From positions 1-37,688 of the IMG/VR virus record IMGVR_UViG_3300032038_000024: DNA of 37,688 nt. One strand, written 5' to 3'. Source of the DNA: a virus. Taxonomy: Duplodnaviria; Heunggongvirae; Uroviricota; Caudoviricetes. A program made the position numbers and the translations under genes. Of this stretch, positions 6,352 to 37,688 are shown piece after piece. How positions within the stretch are numbered: position 1 is the stretch's first letter; each line of letters begins with the position of its first letter. A model generated the notes under the pieces. That model was not told where the DNA came from, made no database searches, and saw nothing but the letters and a program-made list of their open reading frames with translations.

Positions 6352-6382
6352 AAGAAAAAATAAAGGGTAACTTTGTTACCCT
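6352..6382 (-). terminator. Terminator of clpX
   Basis: Minus strand AGGGTAAC-AAA-GTTACCCT then TTATTTTTT; overlaps the clpX stop. Confidence 0.8.
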
Positions 6383-7587: not shown

Positions 7588-7629
7588 CAACGATTATTTT
7601 AAATTACTAAATATAATATATTAATATAG

Positions 7630-12538: not shown

Positions 12539-12754
12539 TTAAAGTTTTCTGAGTTGTTCAATTGTTACTCTAAAATAAGCTCTGTTTCCACTTGATACAT
12601 ATATATCATTTTCTTTATGACGTTCAATTGCATCTTTTATTGCATCTTCACGTTCATCAATTATATCATGATATTTTGATTTTCTTTTTTGATATACATA
12701 ATAATGACAATCTCCCCATGCCATATTATGACCAGTACCAACTCTTATATACAT
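12539..12754 (-). CDS. Hypothetical protein (71 aa)
   Basis: TAATG 1-nt overlap with the topoisomerase stop. Confidence 0.7.
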   Translation of the reverse strand: MYIRVGTGHNMAWGDCHYYVYQKRKSKYHDIIDEREDAIKDAIERHKENDIYVSSGNRAYFRVTIEQLRKL

Positions 12755-14136: not shown

Positions 14137-14708
14137 TACAAGTATTTAATATTTATAAATCGTTCATCGAAAACATCATTTGTTAACCATGCACCACCGC
14201 TTCCTTCAGATTCAGAAATAGACCAATCAGATGGCTTTAACATGCCGACCCAAATATTTTTAATAGTTAAATCTTCATCAGCATTTTTTGGCTTATTAAA
14301 TGCAGTAAAAATATAAAAATGAAATTCATCTTCTTTATATTTACTACCTTTGCCTTTACCTGCATTTGTTTTCGCACCATTAATTCTTTGGTTTTTATTA
14401 CATGTCGTTTTACCCTCAGTATTATAAAATGGATCTAATAAACACATACAATCAGCATCTTTTGTATCATTGCCTTTTGTAAATTCTAATCCTTTGTTGT
14501 TATTTTGTGTCAAATATAATGGTATCAACCCATCAGATATATTACCTATTAATGTACCGAATGAAGATTGTTTAATTAAAATTTCCTTAAATTGTTTATC
14601 AGTTTTGTTTAAATTGTCATTAATAAAATTTGTAACTCCATTAACTGCACTTAATACATCAATAGTCTTTACATATTTTTTTACATTTTCTAAAATTTGT
14701 TTATTCAT
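14136..14708 (-). CDS. ScaI-like PD-(D/E)xK endonuclease, free-standing
   Basis: IGN..DGLIPL / KDAD / NTEGKTT / FYIF..F.K / IWVGML..SDW pattern resembles the ScaI restriction endonuclease family from memory. Confidence 0.55.
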   Translation of the reverse strand: MNKQILENVKKYVKTIDVLSAVNGVTNFINDNLNKTDKQFKEILIKQSSFGTLIGNISDGLIPLYLTQNNNKGLEFTKGNDTKDADCMCLLDPFYNTEGKTTCNKNQRINGAKTNAGKGKGSKYKEDEFHFYIFTAFNKPKNADEDLTIKNIWVGMLKPSDWSISESEGSGGAWLTNDVFDERFINIKYL

Positions 14709-14714
14709 AATTAT

Positions 14715-16607
14715 TTAACTATTTAACATTTGCTTACGTGTTTCAGAATCTCCTTTTGCAAACCATTTTCTAAACATACTGTCTGCAGCTTCATCTTTTT
14801 TGAAATACAAGAATTTTGGTTCTTGATACATTTCTTTTGATTCTTGATTTGAAAGACCACCAAGTCCTTTTGCATATTTATGAGAATAACCTTTAAGTTT
14901 TTTCTCTTCAGATTTGAACTCTTCCATTGTATAGAATTTCTTACAATCTTTTCCTTTTCTTGATATGATAATAGGAGATATACTTCTGCATACAATTCCT
15001 TTTTCAATCAATTCTGGCCAATTGTTAAAGAATAATAACAATAAACTTGCGATCTTATCACCGTCAACATCAGCATCAGTTGAAATAACAATCTTACCGA
15101 AATTAAGTTCATTTATATCGAACTCTTTACCCCACTTCAATCCAAGAATTGTTACAATATCATTAAATACTTCATTCTTCATAATTTGAAGTGGAGTCAT
15201 TCCATAACAATTCAAAGGTACACCTCTCATTGTATAACCTGCTTGAATATCTGGGTTACGACCACCACGGAAACCTGCCTTAGCAGAATCTCCCTCAAAT
15301 ATCCAAAGTTGTCGGTCATTCTTTTTTCTAGATGAACAAGTAATATATTTGTCAGGACGTTTTAATCCTTTATTAGTTTCTCTATTTATTTTACGAAGTG
15401 CCTTTTCATCTTCAGCAGCAGTCTTTTGTTTATACCAATCTCTTACTAATGAAACAATTTCAGACTTAATAATCTTATTTAAGAATTTTTCATTGACCTC
15501 CCATTTGATTTTTTCATCTTTTGCAAACTTTTCAATTGGAGTTGTCAATGTATCTTTAGTCTGTGAATCGTATGAAGGATTTGATACATTAATATTTATA
15601 AATACACTATACTTATTATCAACACCACGAGTTGTCAAATCTTTAATCTTATCTTTCTTTGTAATGTAATCAACAACTGCTTGATTAATTTCATTTCGTA
15701 ATGCTCTCATGTGTGTACCTTTTGAACATTCTGCACCATTAACAAACCCAACATCAACTGAGCTGTCTGGGAATATTAATGCAGTACATAAATCATTTTC
15801 AAAAGGAATCTTATCTGCTATATTAAGTATATTAGAATACAAATCAATATATTCATCAAGCTTTTTAAACTTCCATTCAATATCTTCTCCACCACAATTG
15901 AATATAACTTTTAATCCTGGATTAGCTGCTGCAGCATCAATGCATCTTTTATGAATAATATTGATAAAATCATCATCGAAAGTTTTCAAGTTAGTTTCAA
16001 ATCTTGAAAAGTCGAGTCTGAATCTTGTTTGTGTATAGTGAGTCGTTTTTCCACATTTGGTAACTTTCAAATCATCATTAAGTTTCTCCATATTGTTTGA
16101 CCATGAACGATGAAACTCATTCTTACCATCTGCTGACTCAATTTCAAAAAATGTGGAAAATACATTACACAAAGCCGAACCTACACCATTTGTTCCTATT
16201 ACATTTCTATCTTCGGTATCATCATAGTTTGAAGATGTTCTTAAACGTCCAAATATAAATTCAGGAACATATACTCCTGCTTCTTTATGTTTAACAATAG
16301 GAATACCACCATTATCTCTTACAATGATTTCTCCGTTATCTTTATTCATTACAACACGAAGTTCAGTCAATCCCATATTGTCTTTACGTCTAAATTCATC
16401 ACAAGAGTTAGAAATAACCTCATCTACAACTTTAAGCATTGCAGGAATATAATTTGTAATCTTCATTTCAAATTTTCCTGTCTTACTATTATAAATAAAA
16501 GAATCCTTTTCTTCGGATTTTGTTGATCCTACCCACATTCCTGGTCGGTTCAATATATGCTGTGTTTCTGATAACTCTTGATATTTCTCTTCAATCTTTT
16601 TTGCCAT
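14715..16607 (-). CDS. Type IIA DNA topoisomerase ATPase-TOPRIM subunit (T4 gp39+gp60 fused/GyrB-like)
   Basis: HILNRPGMWVGS, DEVISNSCDE, DNGGIP, GTNGVGS, IFEGDSA, RGVPLN, DADVDG, KGLG. Confidence 0.95.
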   Translation of the reverse strand: MAKKIEEKYQELSETQHILNRPGMWVGSTKSEEKDSFIYNSKTGKFEMKITNYIPAMLKVVDEVISNSCDEFRRKDNMGLTELRVVMNKDNGEIIVRDNGGIPIVKHKEAGVYVPEFIFGRLRTSSNYDDTEDRNVIGTNGVGSALCNVFSTFFEIESADGKNEFHRSWSNNMEKLNDDLKVTKCGKTTHYTQTRFRLDFSRFETNLKTFDDDFINIIHKRCIDAAAANPGLKVIFNCGGEDIEWKFKKLDEYIDLYSNILNIADKIPFENDLCTALIFPDSSVDVGFVNGAECSKGTHMRALRNEINQAVVDYITKKDKIKDLTTRGVDNKYSVFININVSNPSYDSQTKDTLTTPIEKFAKDEKIKWEVNEKFLNKIIKSEIVSLVRDWYKQKTAAEDEKALRKINRETNKGLKRPDKYITCSSRKKNDRQLWIFEGDSAKAGFRGGRNPDIQAGYTMRGVPLNCYGMTPLQIMKNEVFNDIVTILGLKWGKEFDINELNFGKIVISTDADVDGDKIASLLLLFFNNWPELIEKGIVCRSISPIIISRKGKDCKKFYTMEEFKSEEKKLKGYSHKYAKGLGGLSNQESKEMYQEPKFLYFKKDEAADSMFRKWFAKGDSETRKQMLNS

Positions 16608-17741: not shown

Positions 17742-18266
17742 TTATTTTAATAGTTTATTGTTTTCTTCCTTTTGTATTCTTATTCTTGTTATGGTACTTT
17801 GGAGATCTCTTATAAAATTGTTTACGAGTGTATTATAATGTTTACGAGCATCTTTTTTGTTTACAAAATAATAATGATCTTTTTTGAAACCTAAGCTATG
17901 AATTGCTGCATTTTTATCAATTCTTATTTGGTCTAAATGAATTGTATCTTTGAAAACAATATCTACTGCCTGAGGATCTAATTCTCTACTTGTTGATATA
18001 CCAGTTCCTGCAGGTCTATCACCATTCATTTTCATAAAATGATAATTATGTTCAATATAATAAGGATTTACTTCTTGAACAATTAATTGGTTAATGATAA
18101 AGTACTTATATGAATTTTCATCTCTAAAATCTTCAAAAGATGTAAATTTCATTAATGTTGAATTTTCATGTTCCTCATCAGCTTCGATATTTTTCATCAC
18201 TTGCTCTCTATTGTCTATTAATTCATAAACAATATCTCCAGGTTTTAATTTTCCAAATGTTTTCAT
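17742..18266 (-). CDS. Hypothetical protein (174 aa)
   Basis: TAATG overlap with the sigma gene; N-terminal FGKLKPGDIVY, C-terminal coiled coil. Confidence 0.8.
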   Translation of the reverse strand: MKTFGKLKPGDIVYELIDNREQVMKNIEADEEHENSTLMKFTSFEDFRDENSYKYFIINQLIVQEVNPYYIEHNYHFMKMNGDRPAGTGISTSRELDPQAVDIVFKDTIHLDQIRIDKNAAIHSLGFKKDHYYFVNKKDARKHYNTLVNNFIRDLQSTITRIRIQKEENNKLLK

Positions 18267-19480
18267 TATTTAAGAAGTTCAATTATGTTACGTTTATCGG
18301 TTTCTGGTATACTCTTTTCAATTATCTTTAATGTATTAGAAATACTATACTTTACTTTATTAGGTGATATACCTTCATTCTCAGCAATTTCATTTATTGA
18401 CATTGGGAACGGTGCATCTATTCCAAATTTCTTTTTGATTATTCGTCTATCAATCATTGGAAGTTTACTTAATACCTTTTCAAGAATTTCCTTGAACATA
18501 TTTTGTTTTTCCATTGCTTCCATTGATTCATCCATAACAGCAAAATCATCATTTGCTACTTCAGATATCTGATTGTCATGGTAACAATCATCAGTATGTG
18601 GATTAATACTGTCAAGACGAATTATGTTTACTGATGAATGTTCCTTTTGTGCAGATTTAGGAACACGAATTACTTTACCTAATTTGTTTATTTCTGATAT
18701 AATAGTTGCACGAATCCATGCAAAAGCAATTGATGAAAATGAAGCTTTCTTTATATTTTCATTTGTCCATTCAATAAATTCTTTCTTACTATTAAATCCG
18801 TTTGCTGGTAATTTCTTTATAGTTGCATCAAGTGTCTTTGTATATTGGAAATTACGTCTTATTAATTCTTCAGCTTCTGCAAATGTAAAGTATACTTTTT
18901 CTGATTTATTAATGTCGTCTAATATTGCAAATCTTAAATTAGCTCTATCTGTATCAAATTTATTAAAAGTAATTAATAGTCCTTCATTTCCTGCTTGTAT
19001 CAAATCATCCAATGGCAACCCAAGATTTTGATAACGCTTTGCACAATCAATAACAAGCTTCAAATTATTCTTAATGAATACATCTCTATTTTCAGGAACA
19101 AAAGCCATATCTTCAGACTCTCCCATAGGATGTAATATATATTCACGTTTTACTTCATTGAAATAAATATCTATGTTATTGTCAAAGGTTGCTTTAGAAA
19201 CATATTTATCAACTAATTTGTTTCTTGTTTTTGTTTTTAAGTCATCATAGAATTTTTCATATATCTCATAATCATACTTATTTAATAATTCTTTACATGT
19301 ACTTATATAAAAATCCACAATTGATGTCTCTGCACAATCTTTTATCATTTTGACATCTTTATAGACAATATCATTAAATGTATCGAAAAATTCTTGGTCC
19401 TCAATTTTGTCTTCTACAGAATCTAAAAAACTATTAATTTTATTTAAAGAGGTTTTTGTTAAATTAAACTGTCTACTCAC
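18266..19480 (-). CDS. Sigma-70 family RNA polymerase sigma factor (RpoD-like) with region-2 insertion
   Basis: NNLKLVIDCAKRYQNLGLPLDDLIQAGNEGL..KFD (2.1-2.2), FSSIAFAWIRATI...VIRVP (2.3-2.4), region 4 HTH RIIKKKFGI..MSINEIA..EGIS; GTG start. Confidence 0.88.
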   Translation of the reverse strand: MSRQFNLTKTSLNKINSFLDSVEDKIEDQEFFDTFNDIVYKDVKMIKDCAETSIVDFYISTCKELLNKYDYEIYEKFYDDLKTKTRNKLVDKYVSKATFDNNIDIYFNEVKREYILHPMGESEDMAFVPENRDVFIKNNLKLVIDCAKRYQNLGLPLDDLIQAGNEGLLITFNKFDTDRANLRFAILDDINKSEKVYFTFAEAEELIRRNFQYTKTLDATIKKLPANGFNSKKEFIEWTNENIKKASFSSIAFAWIRATIISEINKLGKVIRVPKSAQKEHSSVNIIRLDSINPHTDDCYHDNQISEVANDDFAVMDESMEAMEKQNMFKEILEKVLSKLPMIDRRIIKKKFGIDAPFPMSINEIAENEGISPNKVKYSISNTLKIIEKSIPETDKRNIIELLK

Positions 19481-21322: not shown

Positions 21323-21535
21323 TTATATTCCATTATATAAAGGAATTGTCAATCCATTAGGCAATAGCAAATATTTATCTTTTCTATATTTAGGATTCCA
21401 ATATCCGTTATGTGATTCTGTTCTCATAAAATTGAAAAATCTTTCAACAGACATCATCTTTTCCAATAATGTATCTCCTTCTCCAATTTTACTTCGAAGT
21501 TCATCTCTCTTTTTGTTAAATTCAGATTCATTCAT
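21323..21535 (-). CDS. Hypothetical protein (70 aa from ATG 21535)
   Basis: ORF track (TTG 21538); the ATG overlaps the upstream small-ORF stop. Confidence 0.7.
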   Translation of the reverse strand: MNESEFNKKRDELRSKIGEGDTLLEKMMSVERFFNFMRTESHNGYWNPKYRKDKYLLLPNGLTIPLYNGI

Positions 21536-21662
21536 CAATATCTTTAATCTTTTTACGATTTATTTTGTTAAAAAAATTTATTCTTTTCAACTTATCATCA
21601 GATTTATTTGCTGTTGCTAAATAAGCATTCTTGGCTTTTTTCTTTTTATTCAGACTAGTCAT
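21528..21662 (-). CDS. Small basic protein (44 aa)
   Basis: Manual: MTSLNKKKKAKNAYLATANKSDDKLKRINFFNKINRKKIKDIDE*; overlaps both neighbours by 8 nt. Confidence 0.55.
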   Translation of the reverse strand: MTSLNKKKKAKNAYLATANKSDDKLKRINFFNKINRKKIKDIDE

Positions 21663-21876
21663 CTTCTGGAGGGAAACAATTATTTATATCCATATACTCG
21701 CAAATGTAATCATTTAATACATCTTCATAATCTAATGCCCATATAAGATGTTTATAAAAATCATAACATTTGCCTTGTTTTAACAAATATTCAAAAAGTT
21801 CTTTTGATTTGATTTGCTTTGCGCTATCACCATCAATTTGATTTAATAACTCTTGTTCGTTTAATTCAATTGTCAT
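21655..21876 (-). CDS. Hypothetical acidic protein (73 aa)
   Basis: ATGA overlap; TAG stop. Confidence 0.75.
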   Translation of the reverse strand: MTIELNEQELLNQIDGDSAKQIKSKELFEYLLKQGKCYDFYKHLIWALDYEDVLNDYICEYMDINNCFPPEDD

Positions 21877-22160
21877 AATATTAATCGTTCCTCAGTACCA
21901 ATATCACCCTCTTCATCGTTATGATAATGCCACCATTGTTCTTCAAGTTCAAAATAATGACCTTCTCCAATTTCAGCATCTAATTCATCGGCTAAAAGCA
22001 TAGCAGCTGCACATAAACCTTCTCTATATCCTTCTTGAAGATAATATAATTGTTCTTCATTCAAATCGTCTGATGTTATTGTGCCTTTACGAAGATCTCT
22101 GATATTGTTAATGTATTTCTTTAAATTTTGTACTGGTATTATAGGAGCTAAACGTTTCAT
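21873..22160 (-). CDS. Hypothetical protein (95 aa from MKRLAP)
   Basis: ATG 22160 directly follows the upstream stop; the track's longer start overlaps that gene. Confidence 0.7.
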   Translation of the reverse strand: MKRLAPIIPVQNLKKYINNIRDLRKGTITSDDLNEEQLYYLQEGYREGLCAAAMLLADELDAEIGEGHYFELEEQWWHYHNDEEGDIGTEERLIL

Positions 22161-22161
22161 A

Positions 22162-22509
22162 TTACCAAATATGCTGAAACACAAATAATTGTGCCGGTGT
22201 TTTTGTATATTTCTTAAGAACCTTTTTAAGTTCTGGATTTTCTTCAATTATTTTGTTATATTCAGATGTTGCTTCAGTAATCAATTCTGAATTTATAACA
22301 ACTGGATCCGGATCTTCACCTGCATCATAATTAACTAATATTGCTCCAAAATATAAATAATTGCCACACATTGTATCATCAACCATTATATTTTGAAATT
22401 TATCCCAGTACTCTTCATCAACCTTTTCCAATTTTTTACCAATTTTACGAACTTCATCACTACCTTCAATTTTCCATCCATAAATTACTATTGTGTGATT
22501 GTCTATCAT
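22162..22509 (-). CDS. Hypothetical protein (115 aa)
   Basis: ORF track. Confidence 0.8.
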   Translation of the reverse strand: MIDNHTIVIYGWKIEGSDEVRKIGKKLEKVDEEYWDKFQNIMVDDTMCGNYLYFGAILVNYDAGEDPDPVVINSELITEATSEYNKIIEENPELKKVLKKYTKTPAQLFVFQHIW

Positions 22510-27529: not shown

Positions 27530-27823
27530 TTAATAACTTAATTGATCTTTTGCCCATTGTGATAATACTTCTATAAGATCATCTTCCCAGCGTTCAATAT
27601 CTTTACGATCCCATTCACATTCATTTTCAAGATAATCAAAAGCGTCATCAACCAATGGATCATTTTCTTTATCTGCCATTGCTTTCATATCATCCATAAA
27701 TTCATGACGACTATTATATCCATCTTCAACACAATGTTCATCCCACCATTCTGATAAATCATTTGTCATATCTTCGAGGTCATCTTGAGATGATTCTAAA
27801 ATAAAATTTTTAATATCTTTCAT
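27530..27823 (-). CDS. Very acidic protein with capsid-targeting-like leader (putative internal head protein, DNA-mimic candidate)
   Basis: MKDIKNFILE|S leader; 32 D/E versus 9 K/R in 97 aa. Confidence 0.75.
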   Translation of the reverse strand: MKDIKNFILESSQDDLEDMTNDLSEWWDEHCVEDGYNSRHEFMDDMKAMADKENDPLVDDAFDYLENECEWDRKDIERWEDDLIEVLSQWAKDQLSY

Positions 27824-27826
27824 AAC

Positions 27827-28138
27827 TTATTTTAAATATTCATTATATTTTGGATTGATTCCATAATGATCATCCTTTTCATTATATTCATAAGATTTCA
27901 ATACAAGATAGTTTCCTGGGTCATCTAAATCGTAGAAACCATTATTAGTTGTTGCAATTAACCAATATTCTTTATTGTTTGCTTCTTCTTTAAGTTTCTT
28001 TAATTCATTAACGGCTTTCAATAAATCACCTTCACCCCAATCGGAAACAACTGAGTCATCTCCTCTATCGATGATTTTAAAACCATCTACATTAAATTCT
28101 TTACTATCTGTTTTCAAATATTCAACTATACTTCTCAT
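27827..28138 (-). CDS. Hypothetical protein with variant leader MRSIVEYLKTDS (103 aa)
   Basis: ORF track; hydrophobic pattern at positions 4, 7 and 8 matches the array leader but E10 is missing. Confidence 0.7.
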   Translation of the reverse strand: MRSIVEYLKTDSKEFNVDGFKIIDRGDDSVVSDWGEGDLLKAVNELKKLKEEANNKEYWLIATTNNGFYDLDDPGNYLVLKSYEYNEKDDHYGINPKYNEYLK

Positions 28139-28197: not shown

Positions 28198-28983
28198 ATG
28201 AGTAGCTGTATTTTTACAGTAATTAAAAATGAACATAACTATATAAAAGATTTTATTGATTATCATTTATCATTAGGAATAGATCATATTTTTATATTTG
28301 AAGATATTGGAAGTATTACACATAAAGAAATAATTGATAATTATCCTAAAGATAAAATTACATTAAATTGTGTTGATATATTAAATTTAGAAATATTTAA
28401 TCAATCTGAATATATTAGAAGTGGTTTATTATGGATAAGAGATAATTTTGATTATGATTGGTGTTTTTCAATTGATTGTGATGAATTCATTACTGTTACT
28501 GATGAATTTCCAAAATTATTAAACGATTATATTAAATATGATGCAATTATGTTACAGTGGAAAAATTACGGAGCGTCAGGATATATTTATAAGCCAAAAT
28601 ATGATAAACCTATTTGGGAAATTTATACAAAGGAATGCGGTTATACATATCAAGATAAAAAATTTTGCAATTATACAAAACTGTGTTTTAATATGAAAAG
28701 ATTACAAGAAAGATTTATAGCAGGTAATCATACTGCATTATGTAATTTTGTTCGTCCTGATTTTACATGGAAAAGAAATGTACCTGTTTATGATAGAATA
28801 TATTTAAGACATTATATTACAAAATCATTTGAAGAATATGTTTGGAAATTAAAAATAAGAGGTATGATGTGTAAAACACATAGATATTATTCAGATTTTT
28901 TTGAAATGAATGAAGATATGATTGATAGAAAAAATGAATTAATAAAATTAGCAGATAATATAATAAAAATGAATAGAACTTAG
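28198..28983 (+). CDS. Glycosyltransferase family 2-like (GT-A fold, GT2_4/GT92-like)
   Basis: IFTVIKNEHNYIKDFIDYHLSLGIDHIFIFEDIGS, WCFSIDCDEF (DxD), LRHY.TKS.EEY. Confidence 0.85.
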   Translation: MSSCIFTVIKNEHNYIKDFIDYHLSLGIDHIFIFEDIGSITHKEIIDNYPKDKITLNCVDILNLEIFNQSEYIRSGLLWIRDNFDYDWCFSIDCDEFITVTDEFPKLLNDYIKYDAIMLQWKNYGASGYIYKPKYDKPIWEIYTKECGYTYQDKKFCNYTKLCFNMKRLQERFIAGNHTALCNFVRPDFTWKRNVPVYDRIYLRHYITKSFEEYVWKLKIRGMMCKTHRYYSDFFEMNEDMIDRKNELIKLADNIIKMNRT

Positions 28984-29001
28984 CTAAGTTCTATTCATTT
29001 T
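28966..29001. repeat. Perfect 36-bp palindrome with no spacer between convergent genes
   Basis: aaaatgaatagaacttag|ctaagttctattcatttt equals its own reverse complement. Confidence 0.95.
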
Positions 29002-29007
29002 GTTTAT

Positions 29008-31866
29008 TTAAGGAGCTGCAAATATTCTTGATGCAATATTTCTCCAGTTAGTTGCATTTTTATATGCATCAACTGAACCTGCAGGTACATAAATAGGATA
29101 TGATAATGCTCCACTAAATGATTCATTATCCATTTGTGGTGGTGTTGTTGCTTCCATTGTAACAGATGTTAAATGTGTATTATAAAATGCTCTATATCCA
29201 ATATATGTACATGAAGCTGGTATAACAAGATCTATTGCAAGACTAGTACAATTTCTAAATGCCTCACGTCCAATACTTGTTGCTGATGCAAGTGAATTAA
29301 TATTACTTAATTTTGGATTATCACATAAACAATAATTACCAAATATCTTAATATTACTTAAATCAAAATTTTTCAATTCTGCACAATTACATACTGATTC
29401 ATTTTTTAATTCAGTACATCCAGGACCTATTGACATTGTTACAAGAGCATCACAAGATCTAAAGCCATAATATGGAATTGGTACAGTTAATTTAGGTAAT
29501 GAAATTTCAATTAATTTATCACAATTATAAAATATATAATCAGAGTTCCATGTTTCAAGTGATGATAAATCAATTTCTTCTAATCTACTCTTTTCTCTAA
29601 ATAATTGACCGGCACCATTAAATGATTTACATTTTGTCAATACAACTTTTTTGAAATTTGTACCTTCAGCAAATGTTGCATAATATTGTATAGCTTCTAA
29701 TTCAGGTAAATTCAATAAATCAAGATTAGGATTATTTGCAAATATCCAATCTGAATTTAATGATTTTAATTTTGGTAAATCAATTATTTTACAATTATCT
29801 AAATGTCTAAAATGCTGATTACCATCTGCAAATTGTACTAAATTTGGTAAATGTATTTCTTTTAATTTTGAACATCCATAAAATGCAGAATTTCTAACAA
29901 TTGTTAAATTATCTAAACCTGTTATATATTCACAATCATATAAATAACTTAAACCTACTTCTTTTACTTCAACAAGACTTCCAAAATTTATTTTTGTTAT
30001 TCCATAAGATTCTCTAAATGCCCACCCATCAATTACAGTACAATTTGGGAATGATATTTCTCCTAAACCTTCTTCTCCTGAAGTACCTAATTCTCTAAAT
30101 GCAGAACCTCTAATATATTCAGCAACACATGTATTATTAGGACCTATACTTTTTATTTTTTTACATCTATATAAAGTAGATCCTTTAATATCTGTAACTT
30201 TAGATATATCTACAGATTCAAGTTTAGGACACTGAGCAAAAGCATTACTATCTGCAATTGTTGTAAGTTTAGGGCAATTTACTTCAATAAGATCATAACA
30301 ACGTAAAAATTGTTCAGAACCACTAAATCTTACAACTTCAGGTAAATTAACTTTTGTAATACCGTATGAATCTTCAAATGCTCCCCCATTAACTTGGGTT
30401 GCTGCATCAAATGTTATTTCACCTAATCCTACTTCACCAGAAGTACCAATTTCTCTAAATGAAGATCCATTAATTGTTGTAATTAATGGAATATGTCCGT
30501 CATCACTTATGCTTTTAATATGTTTACATCTATATAAAGATGTACCACCAAGATAAGTAACATTACTTAAATTAATGTGATCTAAATTTGTACATTCTTG
30601 GAATGCATTATCACCAACATATGTTAAATTACTTGTATCACCTATATTTATTAATGAATAATCACCACGAAAACATTCGTTATTAATTCTTGCACAATTT
30701 TTTAAATCAACATCAATTAACGAACTACAATATCTAAAAAATGAACCATCTAAAGTATAATTTAATTGGCTTTCAGGTAATATAACATGTTCTAATGAAT
30801 TACAATTATAAAAAAATCCTCTTAATCCAGAAATAGATGATGTAAGATTTGATAAATCAACAGTTCCTACTAAATTTTTACATCCATTAAAACAATTATA
30901 TCCAGCAGATACAAGATTTGTTGCATCATAATGTCTTAATTCATAACAATTGATAAACAAATCATAACCTAATGTTGTAATGTTTTTCCCTAAATCATTT
31001 GGGAAAACGTATTCATTACAACCATTAAATGCTTCATAATTAACAGTTGTTATTTTATCCCAATCAATATCAGTAGTAAGTAATTTATTGCATCCATAAA
31101 ATAATCTTCTAGGTATAGATGTTAAATTATTCATACCTAAAACAGTTTCTAATTTTTTAGAATTATAAAAAAGTCCTTCATTAAATAAATTTACATGTGC
31201 AGATTGTAAATTAGGCATTGCTTCAAAAACATAATTACCAATTGAAATTAAATTTTGAAAATCAACACTTGCTAATCCTGAACCTAAAAATGCATGATTT
31301 TTCAACGTAGTAATATTTGATGTATCTCCAATATTTTCCAATGCAATTGCATTTTTAAACGTTTGTTCACCAATAACTACAGCATTTCGTAAATCAATTT
31401 CTTTTAATGTTTTATATTCTCTAAATAAGTAATTTGGAAATGATGTAAAATTTTTAAAATATCTCCACTCATTTAGATATTCAATATCAGGATAATTTTT
31501 TAATACAGTTTCACTAATTGTTGATGTTGTTGAATTAAAATATTTTGCAGTACCTTCAGTTATACCAATAGTATCACCAAATACATTTGCACACATTTTT
31601 TCAGCCTTTTTATCTTCAAAATCTATATAATATTCACCAGTATGCAATATATGAAAATCTTGATAAGATTCATTAAAAAATCTTAACATATGTTCATATA
31701 TATTTTGTATTTCAACAGATCCCTTTAAGATACAATTAAAATCTGATGATGTAAATGATTTTTGTATTATATGATATAATTTATATAATGAAGCGTTTGA
31801 AACATGTTCATATGTTGCATTTGCAACATCTTGTTCATTTGTTTGTTTTACAATTAGTGTTTTCAC
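29008..31866 (-). CDS. BspA-type leucine-rich repeat (LRR_5) protein (952 aa)
   Basis: Repeated IG..AF..C..L..I.LP/xxLxxI units; C-terminal ATTPP....F...IYVPAGSVDAYKNATNW; GTG start; no signal peptide seen. Confidence 0.9.
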   Translation of the reverse strand: MKTLIVKQTNEQDVANATYEHVSNASLYKLYHIIQKSFTSSDFNCILKGSVEIQNIYEHMLRFFNESYQDFHILHTGEYYIDFEDKKAEKMCANVFGDTIGITEGTAKYFNSTTSTISETVLKNYPDIEYLNEWRYFKNFTSFPNYLFREYKTLKEIDLRNAVVIGEQTFKNAIALENIGDTSNITTLKNHAFLGSGLASVDFQNLISIGNYVFEAMPNLQSAHVNLFNEGLFYNSKKLETVLGMNNLTSIPRRLFYGCNKLLTTDIDWDKITTVNYEAFNGCNEYVFPNDLGKNITTLGYDLFINCYELRHYDATNLVSAGYNCFNGCKNLVGTVDLSNLTSSISGLRGFFYNCNSLEHVILPESQLNYTLDGSFFRYCSSLIDVDLKNCARINNECFRGDYSLINIGDTSNLTYVGDNAFQECTNLDHINLSNVTYLGGTSLYRCKHIKSISDDGHIPLITTINGSSFREIGTSGEVGLGEITFDAATQVNGGAFEDSYGITKVNLPEVVRFSGSEQFLRCYDLIEVNCPKLTTIADSNAFAQCPKLESVDISKVTDIKGSTLYRCKKIKSIGPNNTCVAEYIRGSAFRELGTSGEEGLGEISFPNCTVIDGWAFRESYGITKINFGSLVEVKEVGLSYLYDCEYITGLDNLTIVRNSAFYGCSKLKEIHLPNLVQFADGNQHFRHLDNCKIIDLPKLKSLNSDWIFANNPNLDLLNLPELEAIQYYATFAEGTNFKKVVLTKCKSFNGAGQLFREKSRLEEIDLSSLETWNSDYIFYNCDKLIEISLPKLTVPIPYYGFRSCDALVTMSIGPGCTELKNESVCNCAELKNFDLSNIKIFGNYCLCDNPKLSNINSLASATSIGREAFRNCTSLAIDLVIPASCTYIGYRAFYNTHLTSVTMEATTPPQMDNESFSGALSYPIYVPAGSVDAYKNATNWRNIASRIFAAP

Positions 31867-31892: not shown

Positions 31893-32780
31893 TTATTTTA
31901 CAGCAGACTTCATAAATTTATCATCTTTAAGTTTATTCATTGCTGAACCTTCTTTATCAGGTAATGAAGTCTTCTTGTCATCTTCATCTGTTCCACCTTT
32001 AAACGCTTGTGGCATCTTTGCTCGACCAGGTGCAGATTCTGATGGATAATTGTTTGCTTTAATATTAAGTAAACTATTTGTAAGCCACTCAACTAAAGTC
32101 TTTTTATCTGTTATTTCTTTTATATATTTATGGAAGTCATCTATTAAAGATTCATCCAAATTGTCTGCAATATAATTTTCAATTTTTTCTTTATCAAAAC
32201 TTTTATCGAAAAAGTTAGGACCTTCAACTTTACTTGATGGAAGACTACCATTATTATCGTTATCTTCAGCTTTAACAGCAGCAATAGTTCCTTGTACTGC
32301 TTTAAGCATTTGAATTGGACTTATATCACCATCATAATTAAATGCTGCAATTTTTCCTTTTGGATTTAATGCTATTGCTTGAAGCCAAGTATGATGTCCA
32401 TCAATAACATAATTCTTTCTAAATGTTACAATTGGCCATTTAATTAAAATAGGATCTGTAAACGTTTTCTCTAATGATCCTTTTTCTTTTAATGCATGAC
32501 AAAGAGACTTATTCAAATCAATTTCACTTTGTGTTGGCATCAATTGAGATACAGGAATTTCTTTATAACTAAAAGTTAATTTTGTATCTCCAAGTTTACC
32601 ACCAAAACCATCTTCAAGTAACGCTTTAGATTTTGGATCTTCAAGCATCTTGTTTAATGTATCAACATAATCATCATAGTTTTTATGTTTTAACCATTTC
32701 TCAAGTTCTTTACGACGTTGTTTGTTTGAATTAGTTTCTATTTCACGAGATTCAAATATATATGAATTAATTTTTTTCAT
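31893..32780 (-). CDS. ParB/Srx-fold protein with capsid-targeting-like leader (295 aa)
   Basis: MKKINSYIFE|S leader; IPVSQLMPTQSEI, PIV....YVIDGHHTW. Confidence 0.7.
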   Translation of the reverse strand: MKKINSYIFESREIETNSNKQRRKELEKWLKHKNYDDYVDTLNKMLEDPKSKALLEDGFGGKLGDTKLTFSYKEIPVSQLMPTQSEIDLNKSLCHALKEKGSLEKTFTDPILIKWPIVTFRKNYVIDGHHTWLQAIALNPKGKIAAFNYDGDISPIQMLKAVQGTIAAVKAEDNDNNGSLPSSKVEGPNFFDKSFDKEKIENYIADNLDESLIDDFHKYIKEITDKKTLVEWLTNSLLNIKANNYPSESAPGRAKMPQAFKGGTDEDDKKTSLPDKEGSAMNKLKDDKFMKSAVK

Positions 32781-32782
32781 TA

Positions 32783-33280
32783 TTATTTAAATTCTTTAAG
32801 ATATTTTTTAAGATCTTTAATAGCTTCTTTATGCCAATCTTCAGTACCTTCTAATTTAAATCCCCAAGAACTACGTTTATCATTTAATATTTCTTGTATA
32901 TCTTTACCATCCTTATCACTATTAATAAGTTCTTTATTATAAAGCACCCAATATTTAACTGATTTGCCGCGATATTTACTATTTTGTTTTACTATAGCAA
33001 TACCCGTTTTATCAAATTTCAAACCATGATAAAATTCAGTCATATCTTCTTTTTCTGATTTGATCTTAATACTATTTTTAAGTACCTTTTCAATTTCTAC
33101 AATACCTCTAATTTGAATGCCATATCCATCAGTATCATATTTAATCAATAAAGCCTTTTCACCTGTATTAAATGTAAAATCTTCAGATTGACGTACACCA
33201 TCTTTATGTAAGAACATTGCTTCTTTATTAGATCCATTACTTTCGAATCTTTCATTTATAAAAAAATTTATTGTTTTCAT
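32783..33280 (-). CDS. Putative internal head protein (165 aa)
   Basis: Leader MKTINFFINE|R. Confidence 0.7.
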   Translation of the reverse strand: MKTINFFINERFESNGSNKEAMFLHKDGVRQSEDFTFNTGEKALLIKYDTDGYGIQIRGIVEIEKVLKNSIKIKSEKEDMTEFYHGLKFDKTGIAIVKQNSKYRGKSVKYWVLYNKELINSDKDGKDIQEILNDKRSSWGFKLEGTEDWHKEAIKDLKKYLKEFK

Positions 33281-33281
33281 A

Positions 33282-33578
33282 TTATTTAATTCTTACATAT
33301 ATATTTATTCCACCATCAGAATCATATGATTCACCAATCTTTAACTTCTTTACTTCCTTTTCTATAGTATCGTCATCCTCAAGATCTTTTGTTGCTTGTT
33401 TTAAGTCAGCTTCAGTGTATGGTGATATCATTTCATCTTGTGTATTGATTAGAAGCCATTTTGCATTTTTATTGTCTAATCCTGGCAAATCAATTCCAAG
33501 ACTACTTGGATCTGTTACGCTTTTGAAATATTCCCAGCCTTTAGAACTTTCAGTTATATAGTTTTTGATATTTTTCAT
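33282..33578 (-). CDS. Putative internal head protein (98 aa)
   Basis: Leader MKNIKNYITE|S. Confidence 0.7.
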   Translation of the reverse strand: MKNIKNYITESSKGWEYFKSVTDPSSLGIDLPGLDNKNAKWLLINTQDEMISPYTEADLKQATKDLEDDDTIEKEVKKLKIGESYDSDGGINIYVRIK

Positions 33579-33580
33579 AA

Positions 33581-33967
33581 TTATTCTAATCTAATAATTT
33601 TATATGCTCTACCTTTTTCAATAATATCTTTATTAATACATTCATGAGTCTTTATATCATAAAGCGCATAAGCTTCAGTATGTAAATACATATTATATAA
33701 TTTTTTACTCTTAATAAACATTTTTATAATAAATACATCATTCTTAGCATCACCTGCATAATAATGAGGAGGAATTGTTAAAAGATATTTAACACCTTGT
33801 TTCTTAAGAGTATTCCACATATCATCAGTTATTGATTTCACAGTTCTTGCATCATCAACATTTTTATTAATATTACTACCAATAATATGATCCATTTCAA
33901 ATTCTTGGTTTTGAAATTTTATTTTTGTAGAAACAGCTTCATTAATAAATACATTAATATTTTTCAT
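33581..33967 (-). CDS. Putative internal head protein (128 aa)
   Basis: Leader MKNINVFINE|A. Confidence 0.7.
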   Translation of the reverse strand: MKNINVFINEAVSTKIKFQNQEFEMDHIIGSNINKNVDDARTVKSITDDMWNTLKKQGVKYLLTIPPHYYAGDAKNDVFIIKMFIKSKKLYNMYLHTEAYALYDIKTHECINKDIIEKGRAYKIIRLE

Positions 33968-33980
33968 AATTTATTAACAT

Positions 33981-34541
33981 TTATATTTTTGCAAACTGTG
34001 TATCTTGATGTTCATAACTATAATATGAACCTTTATGAGTTTCTTCATCAAGAAAATCAACAAATGCTTTTACTGTCATTGGAGTCAATTTATACTTTTT
34101 AACTTCTCCATTATCAGGTCTTAATTCATTTTTAACAGCTTTAATAAATTGTTTACATTCTTTATCTGAATTAAAGAACATACCTTGATATGTTAAAACT
34201 GGTCTAGCATAATGTTTAATTATTCCATTAATTTTTGATTGATGATTTGGGAGTTCAAACGTTTTAACTGCCACATAAATAGTATCACATAATTTAGGAG
34301 CTGTTTTAACAATATCTTCAATTGTCCATTGGTCTAATCTAAATTTATCTGGTACTGCACTATACCATTTCTTTGTATCTTTAGGATGAATATATAAATG
34401 TTCACCTTCATCATCAAATACACCAAAACTATAATTTTTTAATTCTTTATTAAGTTTTTCTATTTCATCATTAAATTCATCAAAATTTATTGATGATACA
34501 GTTTGTTTTGCTTCGTTTAAAAACTTAACTATATTTTTCAT
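33981..34541 (-). CDS. Putative internal head protein (186 aa)
   Basis: Leader MKNIVKFLNE|A. Confidence 0.7.
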   Translation of the reverse strand: MKNIVKFLNEAKQTVSSINFDEFNDEIEKLNKELKNYSFGVFDDEGEHLYIHPKDTKKWYSAVPDKFRLDQWTIEDIVKTAPKLCDTIYVAVKTFELPNHQSKINGIIKHYARPVLTYQGMFFNSDKECKQFIKAVKNELRPDNGEVKKYKLTPMTVKAFVDFLDEETHKGSYYSYEHQDTQFAKI

Positions 34542-34798
34542 ACTTCGTGACCAAATAATTTTATATCGTTGCAGAACAATACTCCAGTTTTCTTATTATA
34601 TGTTGCAATATGATCCATCATTTTATCTTTATTATTAGGAATGTATACTAATTCTAAATCAGGTTCATTTTCATAATTACCAATGAACACATCTTCTTTA
34701 GTTTCTTTTTTCCATTTTTCCCAATCAGATTTTGAATATTTTACTTGTTCTGAAAATGAAGATCCACTTTCATTAATTTTTGATACAATATCTTTCAT
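34538..34798 (-). CDS. Putative internal head protein (86 aa)
   Basis: Leader MKDIVSKINE|S. Confidence 0.7.
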   Translation of the reverse strand: MKDIVSKINESGSSFSEQVKYSKSDWEKWKKETKEDVFIGNYENEPDLELVYIPNNKDKMMDHIATYNKKTGVLFCNDIKLFGHEV

Positions 34799-34800
34799 AG

Positions 34801-35313
34801 TTATTCAACTGGCTTATTTTTCTTAAAGTCATAATGCATATATTTTTTGAATACTTCTGCTAAAATATTATACATACGACCTCCACGTTTACCAATTGCC
34901 TTTTGTTCTTTTGGTGATAATGAATCTAATGCTCTTTGTTGAAGTTCTCCATAAAGTTTAGTATTTGCTTCTTTACATTCAGGAGCTTCAGTTATCTTAG
35001 ATGCCTTTTCCATTAATTCATCAATTTGATACTTCTTTTGAATTTCATCATATTTAGAATCCCATTCAGGATCTCCATATTTTAATTTTAATGAATTAAA
35101 TTCCTTATCTGCCTTTCTTTGATTCTTAGCCATTTCATCCCAATACTTTTGAGCTTCATCTTCATATTTCTTGACAATAAGTTTTGTCTTTTCAACTTCA
35201 TCAACAAAAGCCATTAATTCTTCTTTTGTTTCAAATGGCTTAGCGGCAGTATCACTTTTACGAGCTTCATTCAATTGTAAGCCCTCATTTATTTTATTAA
35301 CAATATCTTTCAT
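34801..35313 (-). CDS. Putative internal head protein, helical (170 aa)
   Basis: Leader MKDIVNKINE|G with a second site LQLNE|A. Confidence 0.7.
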   Translation of the reverse strand: MKDIVNKINEGLQLNEARKSDTAAKPFETKEELMAFVDEVEKTKLIVKKYEDEAQKYWDEMAKNQRKADKEFNSLKLKYGDPEWDSKYDEIQKKYQIDELMEKASKITEAPECKEANTKLYGELQQRALDSLSPKEQKAIGKRGGRMYNILAEVFKKYMHYDFKKNKPVE

Positions 35314-35315
35314 AA

Positions 35316-35714
35316 TTAATAACCCTTCATAGTGTTTTTATTATCATCCATATAACGATGAGTCATATAACAAGCCTGAGCAATAACTTCAATTTTTGAT
35401 TGTTTACCACTTGTAGCTAATGAATATTGATCTATGACATCCTTTGGAGTTAATTCATAAGCCATTTTTTTATGTTTAACATTTAAAATCTTTGTAGTTA
35501 CAATATCCCAAATGTTATCTAATTCGTCTTTAAGATCTCCTTTCCAAAAACGTTGTTCAATTTCTTCCATAGAATACCAAGAATCATTTTTTGTATCTAA
35601 ACATACTTTTTTTAATAATTCTTTAGTATCATTATCAAGATCATTTGCTACAAGACGCCAATTAAACCACTTTTTATTTTTTGACTCATTTATTTTTGTA
35701 ACGATATCTTTCAT
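35316..35714 (-). CDS. Putative internal head protein (132 aa)
   Basis: Leader MKDIVTKINE|S. Confidence 0.7.
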   Translation of the reverse strand: MKDIVTKINESKNKKWFNWRLVANDLDNDTKELLKKVCLDTKNDSWYSMEEIEQRFWKGDLKDELDNIWDIVTTKILNVKHKKMAYELTPKDVIDQYSLATSGKQSKIEVIAQACYMTHRYMDDNKNTMKGY

Positions 35715-35730
35715 AATTAAAATAATTTAT

Positions 35731-36078
35731 TTAATATCCTGGAAACTCATTGCTTGCAGCAAATTGTTCAATAGCAGTAAGAATCATATCAACTACTTCT
35801 GATTTATCTCTATCTTGATGTTTATCTTCTTTAAGGAATTTTTCAAGCATTGACTTAAGTTCAGAAGACATCTTTGATTTAAATTCTTCCATTACACCTT
35901 TAACTATTTCATCATAATTAGGTTCTTTTGCACCTTTTGCATATTCCTTAATATGATCATCATCATAGTTAACTAAACCTTCTTGATACATTTCATCAAT
36001 CCAAACATCAACATATTCAAAAAATTCACGTTTTGGAGTTTTCTTACTTTCATTAATAAATGTTGTAATGTCTTTCAT
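35731..36078 (-). CDS. Putative internal head protein (115 aa)
   Basis: Leader MKDITTFINE|S. Confidence 0.7.
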   Translation of the reverse strand: MKDITTFINESKKTPKREFFEYVDVWIDEMYQEGLVNYDDDHIKEYAKGAKEPNYDEIVKGVMEEFKSKMSSELKSMLEKFLKEDKHQDRDKSEVVDMILTAIEQFAASNEFPGY

Positions 36079-36106
36079 ATTATATTATAAATCTTTATTT
36101 ATGATT

Positions 36107-36631
36107 TTATTTTCTGTATTCTAATGAGTCTTCATCAAATATTATTTCAATAGGATATTCATTTGCTTTTGATGATTCTGCTGCTTTGAAAATATCAATT
36201 AATTTTTGTTCAACATCATCATCAGTTACATCAACCATATCAAATCTATCGAATGTTATAATGTATTTAAGATTTTTGATTTTGAAATATTCTAATTTAA
36301 TTTCATCATCATTTGTTTTTTTATCATCAAACTTTGGATCCCATTCTATATACTCTTTTGGCTCAACATCGATATGTTCAAAAGTATCATATTCGAAGTG
36401 AGCATCAGATATATTATCATTATTTTTACCAAAGAACTTTTCTGAATAATCCTGAGAAGATGGTAATGAATTGAGCCACATATCATCAATGTATTGTTGA
36501 ATATCTGACTCTTGAAAAGTCTCAGGAGCTTGAAGTATTATTTCTTCAGGCTGAACATTATATGTTGCTTCAATCTCATTAAGTCTGTATGTTTCTACAG
36601 ACTCTCTGATATATTTTATTATAGACTTCAT
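36107..36631 (-). CDS. Putative internal head protein, acidic (174 aa)
   Basis: Leader MKSIIKYIRE|S; 44 D/E versus 20 K/R. Confidence 0.7.
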   Translation of the reverse strand: MKSIIKYIRESVETYRLNEIEATYNVQPEEIILQAPETFQESDIQQYIDDMWLNSLPSSQDYSEKFFGKNNDNISDAHFEYDTFEHIDVEPKEYIEWDPKFDDKKTNDDEIKLEYFKIKNLKYIITFDRFDMVDVTDDDVEQKLIDIFKAAESSKANEYPIEIIFDEDSLEYRK

Positions 36632-36846
36632 TAAACATCCTTGAAATATTTTTTAAAATCTTCAGCTGGTACACCAAATTGTTCTATAAGCCACCAATTA
36701 TCGTTTATTTTTGAAGCCTCATATTCTTCTCCTTGTTTGAATGTCATTCCACCTGTCTTGCGTTCTATCTTATATTCTTTGACACATTTGACATCATGCC
36801 ATTCAGAATAATTAGTTTTCTTTATAGATTCAACAATGTCTTTCAT
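36631..36846 (-). CDS. Array member with variant leader MKDIVESIKKT (71 aa)
   Basis: Same MKDIV start and I8 but no E10; TAATG overlaps. Confidence 0.7.
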   Translation of the reverse strand: MKDIVESIKKTNYSEWHDVKCVKEYKIERKTGGMTFKQGEEYEASKINDNWWLIEQFGVPAEDFKKYFKDV

Positions 36847-37328
36847 TATATATTGTTAGGTAAATTTTTCATATCATCAATTTTAACAACTGCCATTGGC
36901 CCATAATATTTTGAAGTAAATTGTTTAAAATATTTTTCCAATGAATCATGAGATGGTTTTCCTTCTTTCCATTTTCCATCTACAAAATATTCATATTTAA
37001 ATTCATTATCTTTTGTACTCCAAGCAGTAACTGCAGGTAAACCAGTTCCTAATTCCCAACGACTTCCATTTTCATGTTCAATTTTTCTAAGCAATGTCAA
37101 ACAATATCCATTTTCTAATGAATATTCATTTGTAATCATTTTAATAAAATCTTCTACTTTAGTTTTCTTTGTTATAATTTTTACAATAGGAAATGTAGTT
37201 GATTTCCAAGCTTTATCTTGACTTAATCCTAAATAATTTACATCATTTATACTTATAAACCATGTAGCAGATTTAATTCCTGTAATACCATTTACAGCTT
37301 CATTAATCTTGATATTTATATCTTTCAT
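36846..37328 (-). CDS. Putative internal head protein (160 aa)
   Basis: Leader MKDINIKINE|A. Confidence 0.7.
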   Translation of the reverse strand: MKDINIKINEAVNGITGIKSATWFISINDVNYLGLSQDKAWKSTTFPIVKIITKKTKVEDFIKMITNEYSLENGYCLTLLRKIEHENGSRWELGTGLPAVTAWSTKDNEFKYEYFVDGKWKEGKPSHDSLEKYFKQFTSKYYGPMAVVKIDDMKNLPNNI

Positions 37329-37346
37329 TTATATATCATATATATA

Positions 37347-37688
37347 TTACCAACCACATTTATCAGAATTATTATAATCCCATTCAATCATATAATCTTC
37401 TTCTTCTTTTGTCAAGTCTTCTCCTTCATTACTTATTGTCTTAAGAAGATTACCAACAATAAACTTATAAAGACGTTTTCTATCATCAGCAGATAAATTT
37501 CCAGCTTTAGCAGCCTTTAATGTTGCAGTTGCCAATTTAGATACAACTGATGATTTTTCAAGTGTTTCAATTTTAAAATCACCTAATTTATGTTTCTTTA
37601 CAAGATTTTGTACTAGAGGCCAATATTGTTCCTTGTAAATATTTTCATTATTATCTAATTCCATACAAGCATTAAATATTGTATGATT
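37347..37688 (-). CDS. 5'-truncated ORF (frame open to the window edge)
   Basis: Codons upstream of ATG 37664 read NHTIFNAC with no stop up to base 37688. Confidence 0.7.
   Translation of the reverse strand, partial: NHTIFNACMELDNNENIYKEQYWPLVQNLVKKHKLGDFKIETLEKSSVVSKLATATLKAAKAGNLSADDRKRLYKFIVGNLLKTISNEGEDLTKEEEDYMIEWDYNNSDKCGW

Follow-up and report, generated by a model that had tools for sequence, protein, structure and literature searches.

A ten-residue start shared by unrelated small phage genes as a candidate T4-type capsid-targeting leader

Why would a dozen unrelated proteins of one phage begin with the same ten residues? The question is raised by a row of small genes at positions 31,893–37,328 of a 37,688-nt stretch of DNA from a Caudoviricetes virus (IMG/VR record IMGVR_UViG_3300032038_000024, positions 1–37,688), which we refer to as the window. 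An original prediction, made from the letters of the window alone, read the shared start (hereafter the tag) as a leader like that of phage T4 internal proteins, which targets them to the capsid and is cut off by the prohead protease, and it read the row as an arsenal of injected proteins. Our analysis lends support to this reading through a protease, a candidate cleavage site in the capsid protein, the specificity of the motif and the recurrence of the tag in a 376-kb relative; each of the proposed checks that sequence analysis can address turned out as the prediction foresaw.

The best explanation, to which we give a probability of about 0.68, is that the tag is this lineage's T4-type capsid-targeting leader, removed by a protease, greatly expanded in number and carried by an enzyme-rich cassette locus with fast turnover. 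The principle of capsid targeting is textbook T4 biology. The mechanism is therefore not new, and what is gained is scale, lineage and predictive use.

The tag and the proteins that carry it

The window was searched in all six frames with the pattern ^MK.I...[IL].E. Twelve open reading frames (ORFs) match, all on the minus strand: 11 lie in the row and one is an outlier at 27,530–27,823. From residue frequencies we estimate that chance would give ~0.015 matches among ~100 genes. There is no match left of 27.5 kb and none anywhere in the window away from an N-terminus; neither the replication genes nor the structural genes carry the motif. Residue 11 is Ser, Ala or Gly in 11 of the 12 ORFs and Arg in the remaining one (32,783–33,280). 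The row also continues past the end of the window. The gene cut there begins MKDIKEYIIE↓S in an ENA contig with identical genes (L001, 9,602–9,982; arrows mark known or putative cleavage points), which brings the row to 13 genes, 12 of them tagged. Two further starts, MKDIVESIKK within the row, which lacks Glu10, and MRSIVEYLKT next to the outlier, look like decayed tags.

The tag is under selection as a peptide, because synonymous codons vary and the DNA 5' of the starts is not conserved. Ile4 is encoded by ATA, ATT or ATC, Ile8 by ATT, ATC or ATA and Glu10 by GAA or GAG. Ser11 draws on both of its codon families (TCT/TCA and AGT), and no conservation was seen in the 30 nt 5' of the tagged starts.

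In most of these points the original prediction stands. Its ORFs and N-termini are as listed, with 11 of 12 row members tagged and another tagged gene at 27,530–27,823; our six-frame search agrees that no gene left of 27.5 kb has the motif; the small residue that it saw at position 11 in 11 of 12 is there; and the codon variation from which it argued for selection at the protein level is found at Ile, Glu and Ser11 alike. Its row of 12 ORFs is right as to members and too short as to extent, since a thirteenth gene crosses the window end.

The same tag recurs in G001, an IMG/VR genome of 376 kb that is estimated to be 98% complete, has a capsid protein 92% identical to that of this phage and is collinear with the window. 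There, 48 of 2,981 Met positions match the looser pattern M[KR]x[ILV]xxx[ILVMF]xE, and 45 of the 48 are at ORF starts. The tagged genes are grouped in islands that flank the head module to left and right (120–134 kb, 184–191 kb and 229–234 kb), and 40 of the 45 have a tagged neighbour. All tagged proteins are at most 295 residues long, though 15% of the genes of G001 are longer (P ~7e-4). The tag also occurs internally: MKTINEYINE stands at residue 358 of a 464-aa frame (188,008–189,402, L033), which may join two genes fused in frame or hide an unrecognised internal start.

We compared 58 leaders. The consensus is M-K-x-(I/L)-x-x-(Y/F/K)-(I/L)-x-E: Met1, Ile or Leu at positions 4 and 8, and Glu10 are found in 58 of 58, Lys2 in 56, Tyr, Phe or Lys at position 7 in 50, and Ser, Ala, Gly or Thr at position 11 in 44. 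Position 5 is hydrophobic in 10 of the 14 leaders with a polar position 7, versus 7 of the 44 others (Fisher p 2e-4). Read on the sequences, this is a compensation that would keep a three-residue hydrophobic face, in leaders that are not independent samples.

Past the tag there is very little in common. Once it is removed, BLASTP sorts the 63 tagged proteins (window plus G001) into 58 families, which bears out the earlier observation that the genes diverge completely beyond the leader and extends it to the ~45 unrelated tagged genes of a near-complete relative.

A protease-scaffold, a capsid protein and an upstream motif

A T4-type leader calls for a T4-type protease. A 32.5-kb ENA contig carries both the start of the array and, at a distance of 16 kb, a morphogenetic block, in which positions 1,082–2,770 of L004 encode a 562-aa protein. 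Its first ~190 residues make up a gp21-type protease (44.8 bits to PF03420, whose cutoff is 27) that BLASTP aligns with T4 gp21 at E 9e-10, with the GELxHP and SSRG motifs in register. The remainder consists of an acidic/basic linker, a coiled segment and nine 11-residue repeats, W(V/I)xEE(F/Y)xPExQN, each containing a hydrophobic-x-E site; the repeats could be both docking and cut sites. The protein starts MTDKRCLVYE↓TLG, in parallel with MNEPQLLIE↓TWG of T4 gp21. The repeats are kept in relatives, reading W(I/V)xE(Q/N/H)YSPEVQK in a clade whose tag has Leu at position 4. A predicted complex of scaffold residues 236–562 with a ParB-like cargo protein scored 0.00, which is uninformative either way.

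The same block holds a gp23-type capsid gene (PF07068, 98 bits), one sheath-sized gene and one tube-sized gene. In the capsid proteins of this phage and 15 relatives ...NWVSQYAAIHEIHE↓S(A) is kept and is followed by a variable Gly-rich stretch. The conserved N-terminal segment thus ends in AAIHEIHE↓S(A), a candidate cleavage site that is placed like FLTE↓AEIGGDHG in T4 gp23. A phmmer search of the PDB sequences with the capsid protein and the protease gave no match. The original prediction had expected this genome to encode a gp21-like protease and T4-like head genes with (I/L)xE sites. Both are present, the latter as a gp23-family capsid protein with its predicted I-H-E↓S(A) site.

How specific is the tag format? 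In T4 the capsid-targeting sequence (CTS) is carried by IPI-III, Alt and the gp24 propeptide and is removed by gp21 (Mullaney & Black 1996, cited in PMC9026906, PMC3012670). Residues 4 and 7 of the CTS act in targeting and residues 8 and 10 in processing (PMC9026906), and positions 4, 7, 8 and 10 are those conserved in the array. The leaders in the T4 record are MKTYQEFIAE↓A (IPII and IPIII), MAKINELLRE↓S (gp24) and MELITELFDE↓D (Alt), and the T4 sequences on which the original prediction leaned match that record. Applied to the annotated genes of T4, the generic motif finds only gp24, Alt, IPII, IPIII and gp61.1, which makes the format nearly specific for gp21-processed proteins in that phage. 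The protein gp61.1 (NC_000866, 18,966–19,130; L053) is a 54-aa hypothetical protein encoded beside the primase gene, and its start, MKTFKEFIKE↓D, is close to the CTS of IPII and IPIII. We know of no report that it is packaged.

An upstream motif hints at shared timing. L004 has five copies of TTTATTTTTA, where 1.08 would be expected, and 0 of 100 shuffles reached five. All five copies are intergenic and on the coding strand: two precede the protease gene, one the capsid gene, one the sheath gene and one the array operon, 127 nt before its sigma-like first gene. The 37.7-kb window has a single copy, on the wrong strand and within a gene. In relatives down to 57% identity the motif persists before the capsid gene and its flanks diverge. 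It also precedes the orthologous G001 operon, and in that genome it is found before two more clusters of tagged genes, before the gene for a 2,830-aa protein and before a DnaK-like gene. On this pattern the array is likely to be co-regulated with the head genes; we say no more than likely because the motif is short and AT-rich and its count in G001 is not above the shuffle level. A sigma-70 promoter scan stayed below shuffle level and was uninformative, and the RNA-library contigs used here speak to presence and strain variants, not to transcription or timing. Immediately ahead of the start codon of the capsid gene stands another conserved block, AATAACAAATAAATTT.

Taken by analogy with T4, these elements suggest a sequence of steps. 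The tag would fold as a short amphipathic helix and dock the new protein on the core of the assembling prohead, formed here by the gp21-type protease fused to its nine-repeat scaffold. After shell assembly the protease would cut behind Glu10, at hydrophobic-x-E followed by Ser, Ala or Gly, and the same enzyme would trim the capsid protein at IHE↓S and chop the scaffold. The small proteins thus released, of at most 295 residues, would stay beside the DNA inside the head and pass into the host together with it. The array itself is a fast-turnover cassette locus in which the tag alone is kept. Docking, cleavage, encapsidation and injection, and likewise what the cargo does, are points that we infer only, and a role of the cargo in anti-defence or host takeover is a guess.

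Relatives, cargo and competing explanations

Of the named phages, the Prevotella Lak megaphages come closest, with a topoisomerase II 54% identical. Sequencing runs that contain the array come from cattle and sheep gut, the best carrier being probably the source sample, and from the Lak relatives and the ruminant-gut source the host is probably a gut member of the Bacteroidota (Bacteroidales). No near-identical DNA to the window was found in the phage collection, and an exact 32-mer had no match in viral contigs.

The tag changes with distance. A DNA pattern for the tag was counted 29 times in G001 (control 1; capsid 92% identical), nine times in G002, a 60%-complete fragment (capsid 66% identical), once in G003, which is complete (capsid 57% identical), and five times in Lak-A1 (capsid not compared). 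In G003 (294 kb) ~20 genes start with a Leu4 version of the tag, MK(S/K/N)Lxx(Y/F)(I/L/V)xE↓(A/S), some of them encoding proteins of up to 516 aa. The protease is encoded in all four genomes, and in G003 the scaffold repeats differ in step with the tag version. The Lak-A1 protease has no Trp repeats, and Lak-A1 lacks this tag and has other recurrent N-termini. With its genes called with TAG as Gln, ~nine Lak-A1 proteins of 232–644 aa (MK250015, L069–L096) start MNKxIKxLxESLFDD (for example 21,479–22,495, 59,059–60,222 and 304,508–305,416), and five tandem genes at 311,040–313,486 start MK(V/I)QIRxGVFETNSSS.

Among close relatives it is the cargo that turns over. In G001 we found homologs for only 6 of 15 proteins queried (14 array ORFs and the gene that runs off the window end). 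Contigs of two studies share a joint, 36,851→37,347, that removes exactly the gene at 36,846–37,328, and other ruminant contigs have 332 other bases in place of the gene at 35,316–35,714. A lone tagged gene in G001 (MKQISLYIKE↓S, 124 aa; 254,762–255,136, L036) lies directly after recA; the window has only 18 nt at that site, which marks the G001 gene as a single-cassette insertion.

The cargo resembles little that is known. Pfam gave no match in the 12 tagged window proteins scanned, PHROGs assigned the tagged window proteins to two families only, both of unknown function, and a protein atlas held no usable match for two orphan cargo proteins. No sequence similarity of the cargo to T4 internal proteins was seen. 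Tagged cargo in G001 includes an AAA_33 P-loop kinase, a HAD hydrolase and a ferritin-like protein; in these three the Pfam domain sets in at residues 17–22. Tagged G001 proteins have a median pI of 5.4, and 29 of the 45 are acidic.

The 295-aa protein at the downstream end of the row could be followed further. An initial homolog search returned only close alleles (at least 76% identity); a representative library then gave 935 homologs. The AlphaFold model, built on a 60-sequence alignment, has a mean pLDDT of 93.5 (36 in a single-sequence run). It predicts a short helix at residues 4–9, a stretch at 9–12 with pLDDT <50 and a fold that begins at about residue 19. That fold may be distantly related to a ParB N-domain or Srx: the best Foldseek match is the pNOB8 ParB N-domain (E 8e-4, at a TM score of only ~0.25), and 13 of 60 family members give a weak match to ParBc_2, whereas the 295-aa protein itself gives none. 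DGHH and W are invariant in the 60 ParB-like homologs, and the Arg of DGHHR, at least 90% conserved there, is replaced by Thr in the 295-aa protein and in 118 of 119 close alleles. About 20–25 of 137 full-length homolog representatives have a leader of the same format in another version; such alternatives include MKxLxEYIxE↓S, MRxFxxYIxE↓A and MIKLxxLLxE. Other homologs start directly with the domain or embed it in proteins of up to 1,466 aa.

Several observations weigh against a T4-type leader. The tag is on ~8% of the genes of G001, far above the four or five known in T4. Cleavage and packaging are argued by analogy, and the relatives are all uncultured; the GenBank record of a distant cultured phage, Tenacibaculum phage PTm1, bears no annotation from a virion proteome. 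The cargo is not basic, as T4 IPI-III are: in the window its pI runs from 4.05 to 9.06, and several members are strongly acidic. Internal (I/L)xE(S/A/G) sites are not depleted in it (12 observed, 13.4 expected), and some tags are followed by Arg, Glu or Lys in place of a small residue. The tags in one genome are probably related by descent, so that our counts and the covariation test overstate their independence. An extended 13-base form of the upstream motif, WTTT[T/A]ATTTTTAW, occurs 16 times in G001 against ~12 and is not above a mononucleotide shuffle. The operon, moreover, opens with a sigma-like gene and adjoins replication genes, a context that leaves late expression to the short AT-rich motif alone.

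Could the tag then serve something other than the prohead? It might be an N-terminal helix that stays on the protein as a handle for another partner, in which case the proteins would act in the cell and never be packaged. Candidate partners are a chaperone, a phage ClpX-like unfoldase (for timed degradation), the neighbouring sigma-like protein or the host RNA polymerase, and a localisation machine. The window does encode a ClpX-like ATPase (6,376–7,590, assigned by reading its translation only), a sigma-like gene stands ahead of the array and replication genes lie next to it, the cargo consists mostly of acidic or neutral enzymes that could be of use in the cytoplasm, and internal cleavage motifs are not avoided. 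We nevertheless regard a handle as unlikely, because it leaves unexplained the invariant Glu10 and its small residue, the likeness to IHE↓S of the capsid protein, the register of the T4 leader and the occurrence of TTTATTTTTA before both the array operon and head and tail genes. As far as we are aware, known N-terminal ClpX signals do not fit the tag pattern. It might also be that the proteins are packaged and cut and then act in the capsid or its assembly, as core or scaffold, in condensing or protecting the DNA, or as material to be degraded and expelled. The T4 protease that removes the CTS also processes gp22, gp67 and gp68 of the scaffold and core, and mutants of IPIII affect head assembly (PMC9026906); G001 has a tagged ferritin-like protein. 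Such a role seems quite improbable to us: fast gain and loss of members among strains and close relatives suits arms-race effectors better, and kinase, phosphatase and ParB-like enzymes have no obvious task in a closed capsid.

The explanation for which we see least room is a signal in the nucleic acid, either a translation-initiation context or a recombination site, or else descent of the whole row from one old paralog family. AAA as second codon and AT-rich starts are common in the genome, and the cassette indels fall at gene boundaries. However, the codons are synonymous and even come from non-overlapping families, the 5' DNA is unconserved, the cargo has unrelated folds (P-loop kinase, HAD, ferritin-like and ParB-like) and its homologs elsewhere are untagged. 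Codon variation, the 58 families and the unrelated Pfam domains largely refute both a signal at the level of RNA or DNA and the divergence of one paralog family.

We return to the capsid-targeting leader as the preferred reading. Carried to the whole lineage, it would mean that Lak-related ruminant-gut phages of 300–400 kb deliver ~45 small proteins (~8% of their genes) with their DNA, by one tag that docks on 11-residue repeats, and that the cassette set is strain-specific and readable from sequence. The delivered set would comprise a P-loop kinase, a HAD phosphatase, a ferritin-like protein, a ParB-like enzyme and dozens of orphans. We offer this wider claim tentatively, as a possibility that we would sooner doubt than assume.

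Should the tag act as the CTS does in T4, the genome of an uncultured phage would by itself be enough to predict which proteins are injected, and in this lineage they would exceed every set described by an order of magnitude in size and also in their share of enzymes. That would make the tagged orphans focused candidates for first-minute functions (anti-defence, host takeover, nucleic-acid repair) in phages of the dominant gut Bacteroidota. The tag with its matching protease-scaffold is also a possible protein-loading device, as the T4 CTS has been tested.

The operon, its neighbours and known systems

The window is AT-rich (25–34% GC) and has nearly all of its genes on the minus strand. Gaps within the array are 0–28 nt, and a terminator scan found no terminator inside the array and none between it and the LRR_5 gene (Table 1). 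The operon is headed by a 386-aa gene with weak similarity to sigma-70 region 2 of the other sigma gene of the window, and the tagged gene cut by the window end comes immediately behind it.

Table 1. Coordinates of the array, its surroundings and related features (window positions unless another sequence is named).
Feature	Position	Strand	Remarks
3' part of 126-aa tagged gene	37347–37688	-	First tagged operon gene; G001 ortholog 230351–230728
Tagged gene, 160 aa, MKDINIKINE↓A	36846–37328	-	No G001 homolog; precisely missing in strain variants
71-aa array member, degenerate tag MKDIVESIKK	36631–36846	-	G001 homolog 229558–229743 also untagged
Tagged gene, 174 aa, MKSIIKYIRE↓S	36107–36631	-	Acidic, net charge -26; G001 ortholog 83% identical
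Tagged gene, 115 aa, MKDITTFINE↓S	35731–36078	-	No G001 homolog
Tagged gene, 132 aa, MKDIVTKINE↓S	35316–35714	-	Swapped for 332 other bases in strain variant
Tagged gene, 170 aa, MKDIVNKINE↓G	34801–35313	-	ORF and tag pattern
Tagged gene, 86 aa, MKDIVSKINE↓S	34538–34798	-	ORF and tag pattern
Tagged gene, 186 aa, MKNIVKFLNE↓A	33981–34541	-	G001 ortholog 84% identical
Tagged gene, 128 aa, MKNINVFINE↓A	33581–33967	-	Weak PHROG 28122 match
Tagged gene, 98 aa, MKNIKNYITE↓S	33282–33578	-	G001 ortholog 50% identical
Tagged gene, 165 aa, MKTINFFINE↓R	32783–33280	-	Sole member without small residue 11
Tagged gene, 295 aa, MKKINSYIFE↓S	31893–32780	-	Possibly ParB/Srx-like cargo, DGHHTW
952-aa BspA-type LRR_5 protein, untagged	29008–31866	-	Pfam PF13306, 311 bits; last gene of array transcription unit
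Bidirectional terminator-like hairpin closing array operon	28966–29001	.	Terminator scan
103-aa gene, degenerate tag MRSIVEYLKT	27827–28138	-	ORF read
Outlying tagged gene, 97 aa, MKDIKNFILE↓S	27530–27823	-	Net charge -23, very acidic
Promoter-like TTTATTTTTA positions	L004 945–984, 2811–2820, 4803–4812, 17605–17614		Also before capsid gene in L008–L020
Leu4-tag examples	G003 102702–103662, 131536–136319, 287955–290294		L054–L068

What else the window encodes looks like a block for replication and expression: besides the ClpX-like gene there are a RecA-like gene (10,253–11,305), a two-gene T4-type topoisomerase II (12,754–16,607, by tblastn) and a sigma-70-like factor (18,266–19,480, by Pfam). 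A family-2 glycosyltransferase gene on the plus strand (28,198–28,983) is missing in one variant (joint 28,147→28,997, one RNA-library contig) and is an optional insert between two minus-strand units.

A search of the literature brought up no description of such arrays in huge gut phages, and the Jug-phage paper makes no mention of leaders (PMC12880540). The closest parallel is T4. As with the CTS, the tag of the array is ten residues long, hydrophobic at position 4 and at 7/8, has Glu at 10 and a small residue at 11 and stands on unrelated proteins, in a genome that encodes a gp21-family protease and a gp23-family capsid protein with a hydrophobic-x-E site; here all this is known from genes alone. 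Where T4 has four or five such proteins, this array has 13 genes and the genome ~45. Its cargo, unlike that of T4, is mostly acidic or neutral and includes enzymes, its protease is fused to a repeat scaffold, its consensus is MKx(I/L)xx(Y/F/K)IxE and its phage probably infects a gut member of the Bacteroidota.

The inner-body or ejection proteins of phiKZ-like giant phages such as SPN3US offer another comparison. SPN3US has ~50 head proteins and a protease that cleaves behind A-x-E and prefers Ser at P1'. Only ~nine proteins are processed, with non-uniform propeptides of 20–254 residues, and most head proteins remain uncleaved (PMC10052503). The phage of the array would share with SPN3US a giant capsid, many proteins that enter the host and a Glu-cutting prohead protease, which for the array phage is a candidate. 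It differs in that a uniform ten-residue tag marks its candidate set.

The variable internal-protein loci of T-even phages are a further parallel. T-even internal proteins are diverse and have the CTS alone in common (PMC9026906; PMC3012670). As in those loci, cargo is swapped among close relatives and the leader is kept, a pattern usually read as an arms race (PMC3012670, PMC9026906). Unlike them, the system described here is much larger, is spread over several islands to either side of the head module and gains and loses cassettes with gene precision between strains of the ruminant gut.

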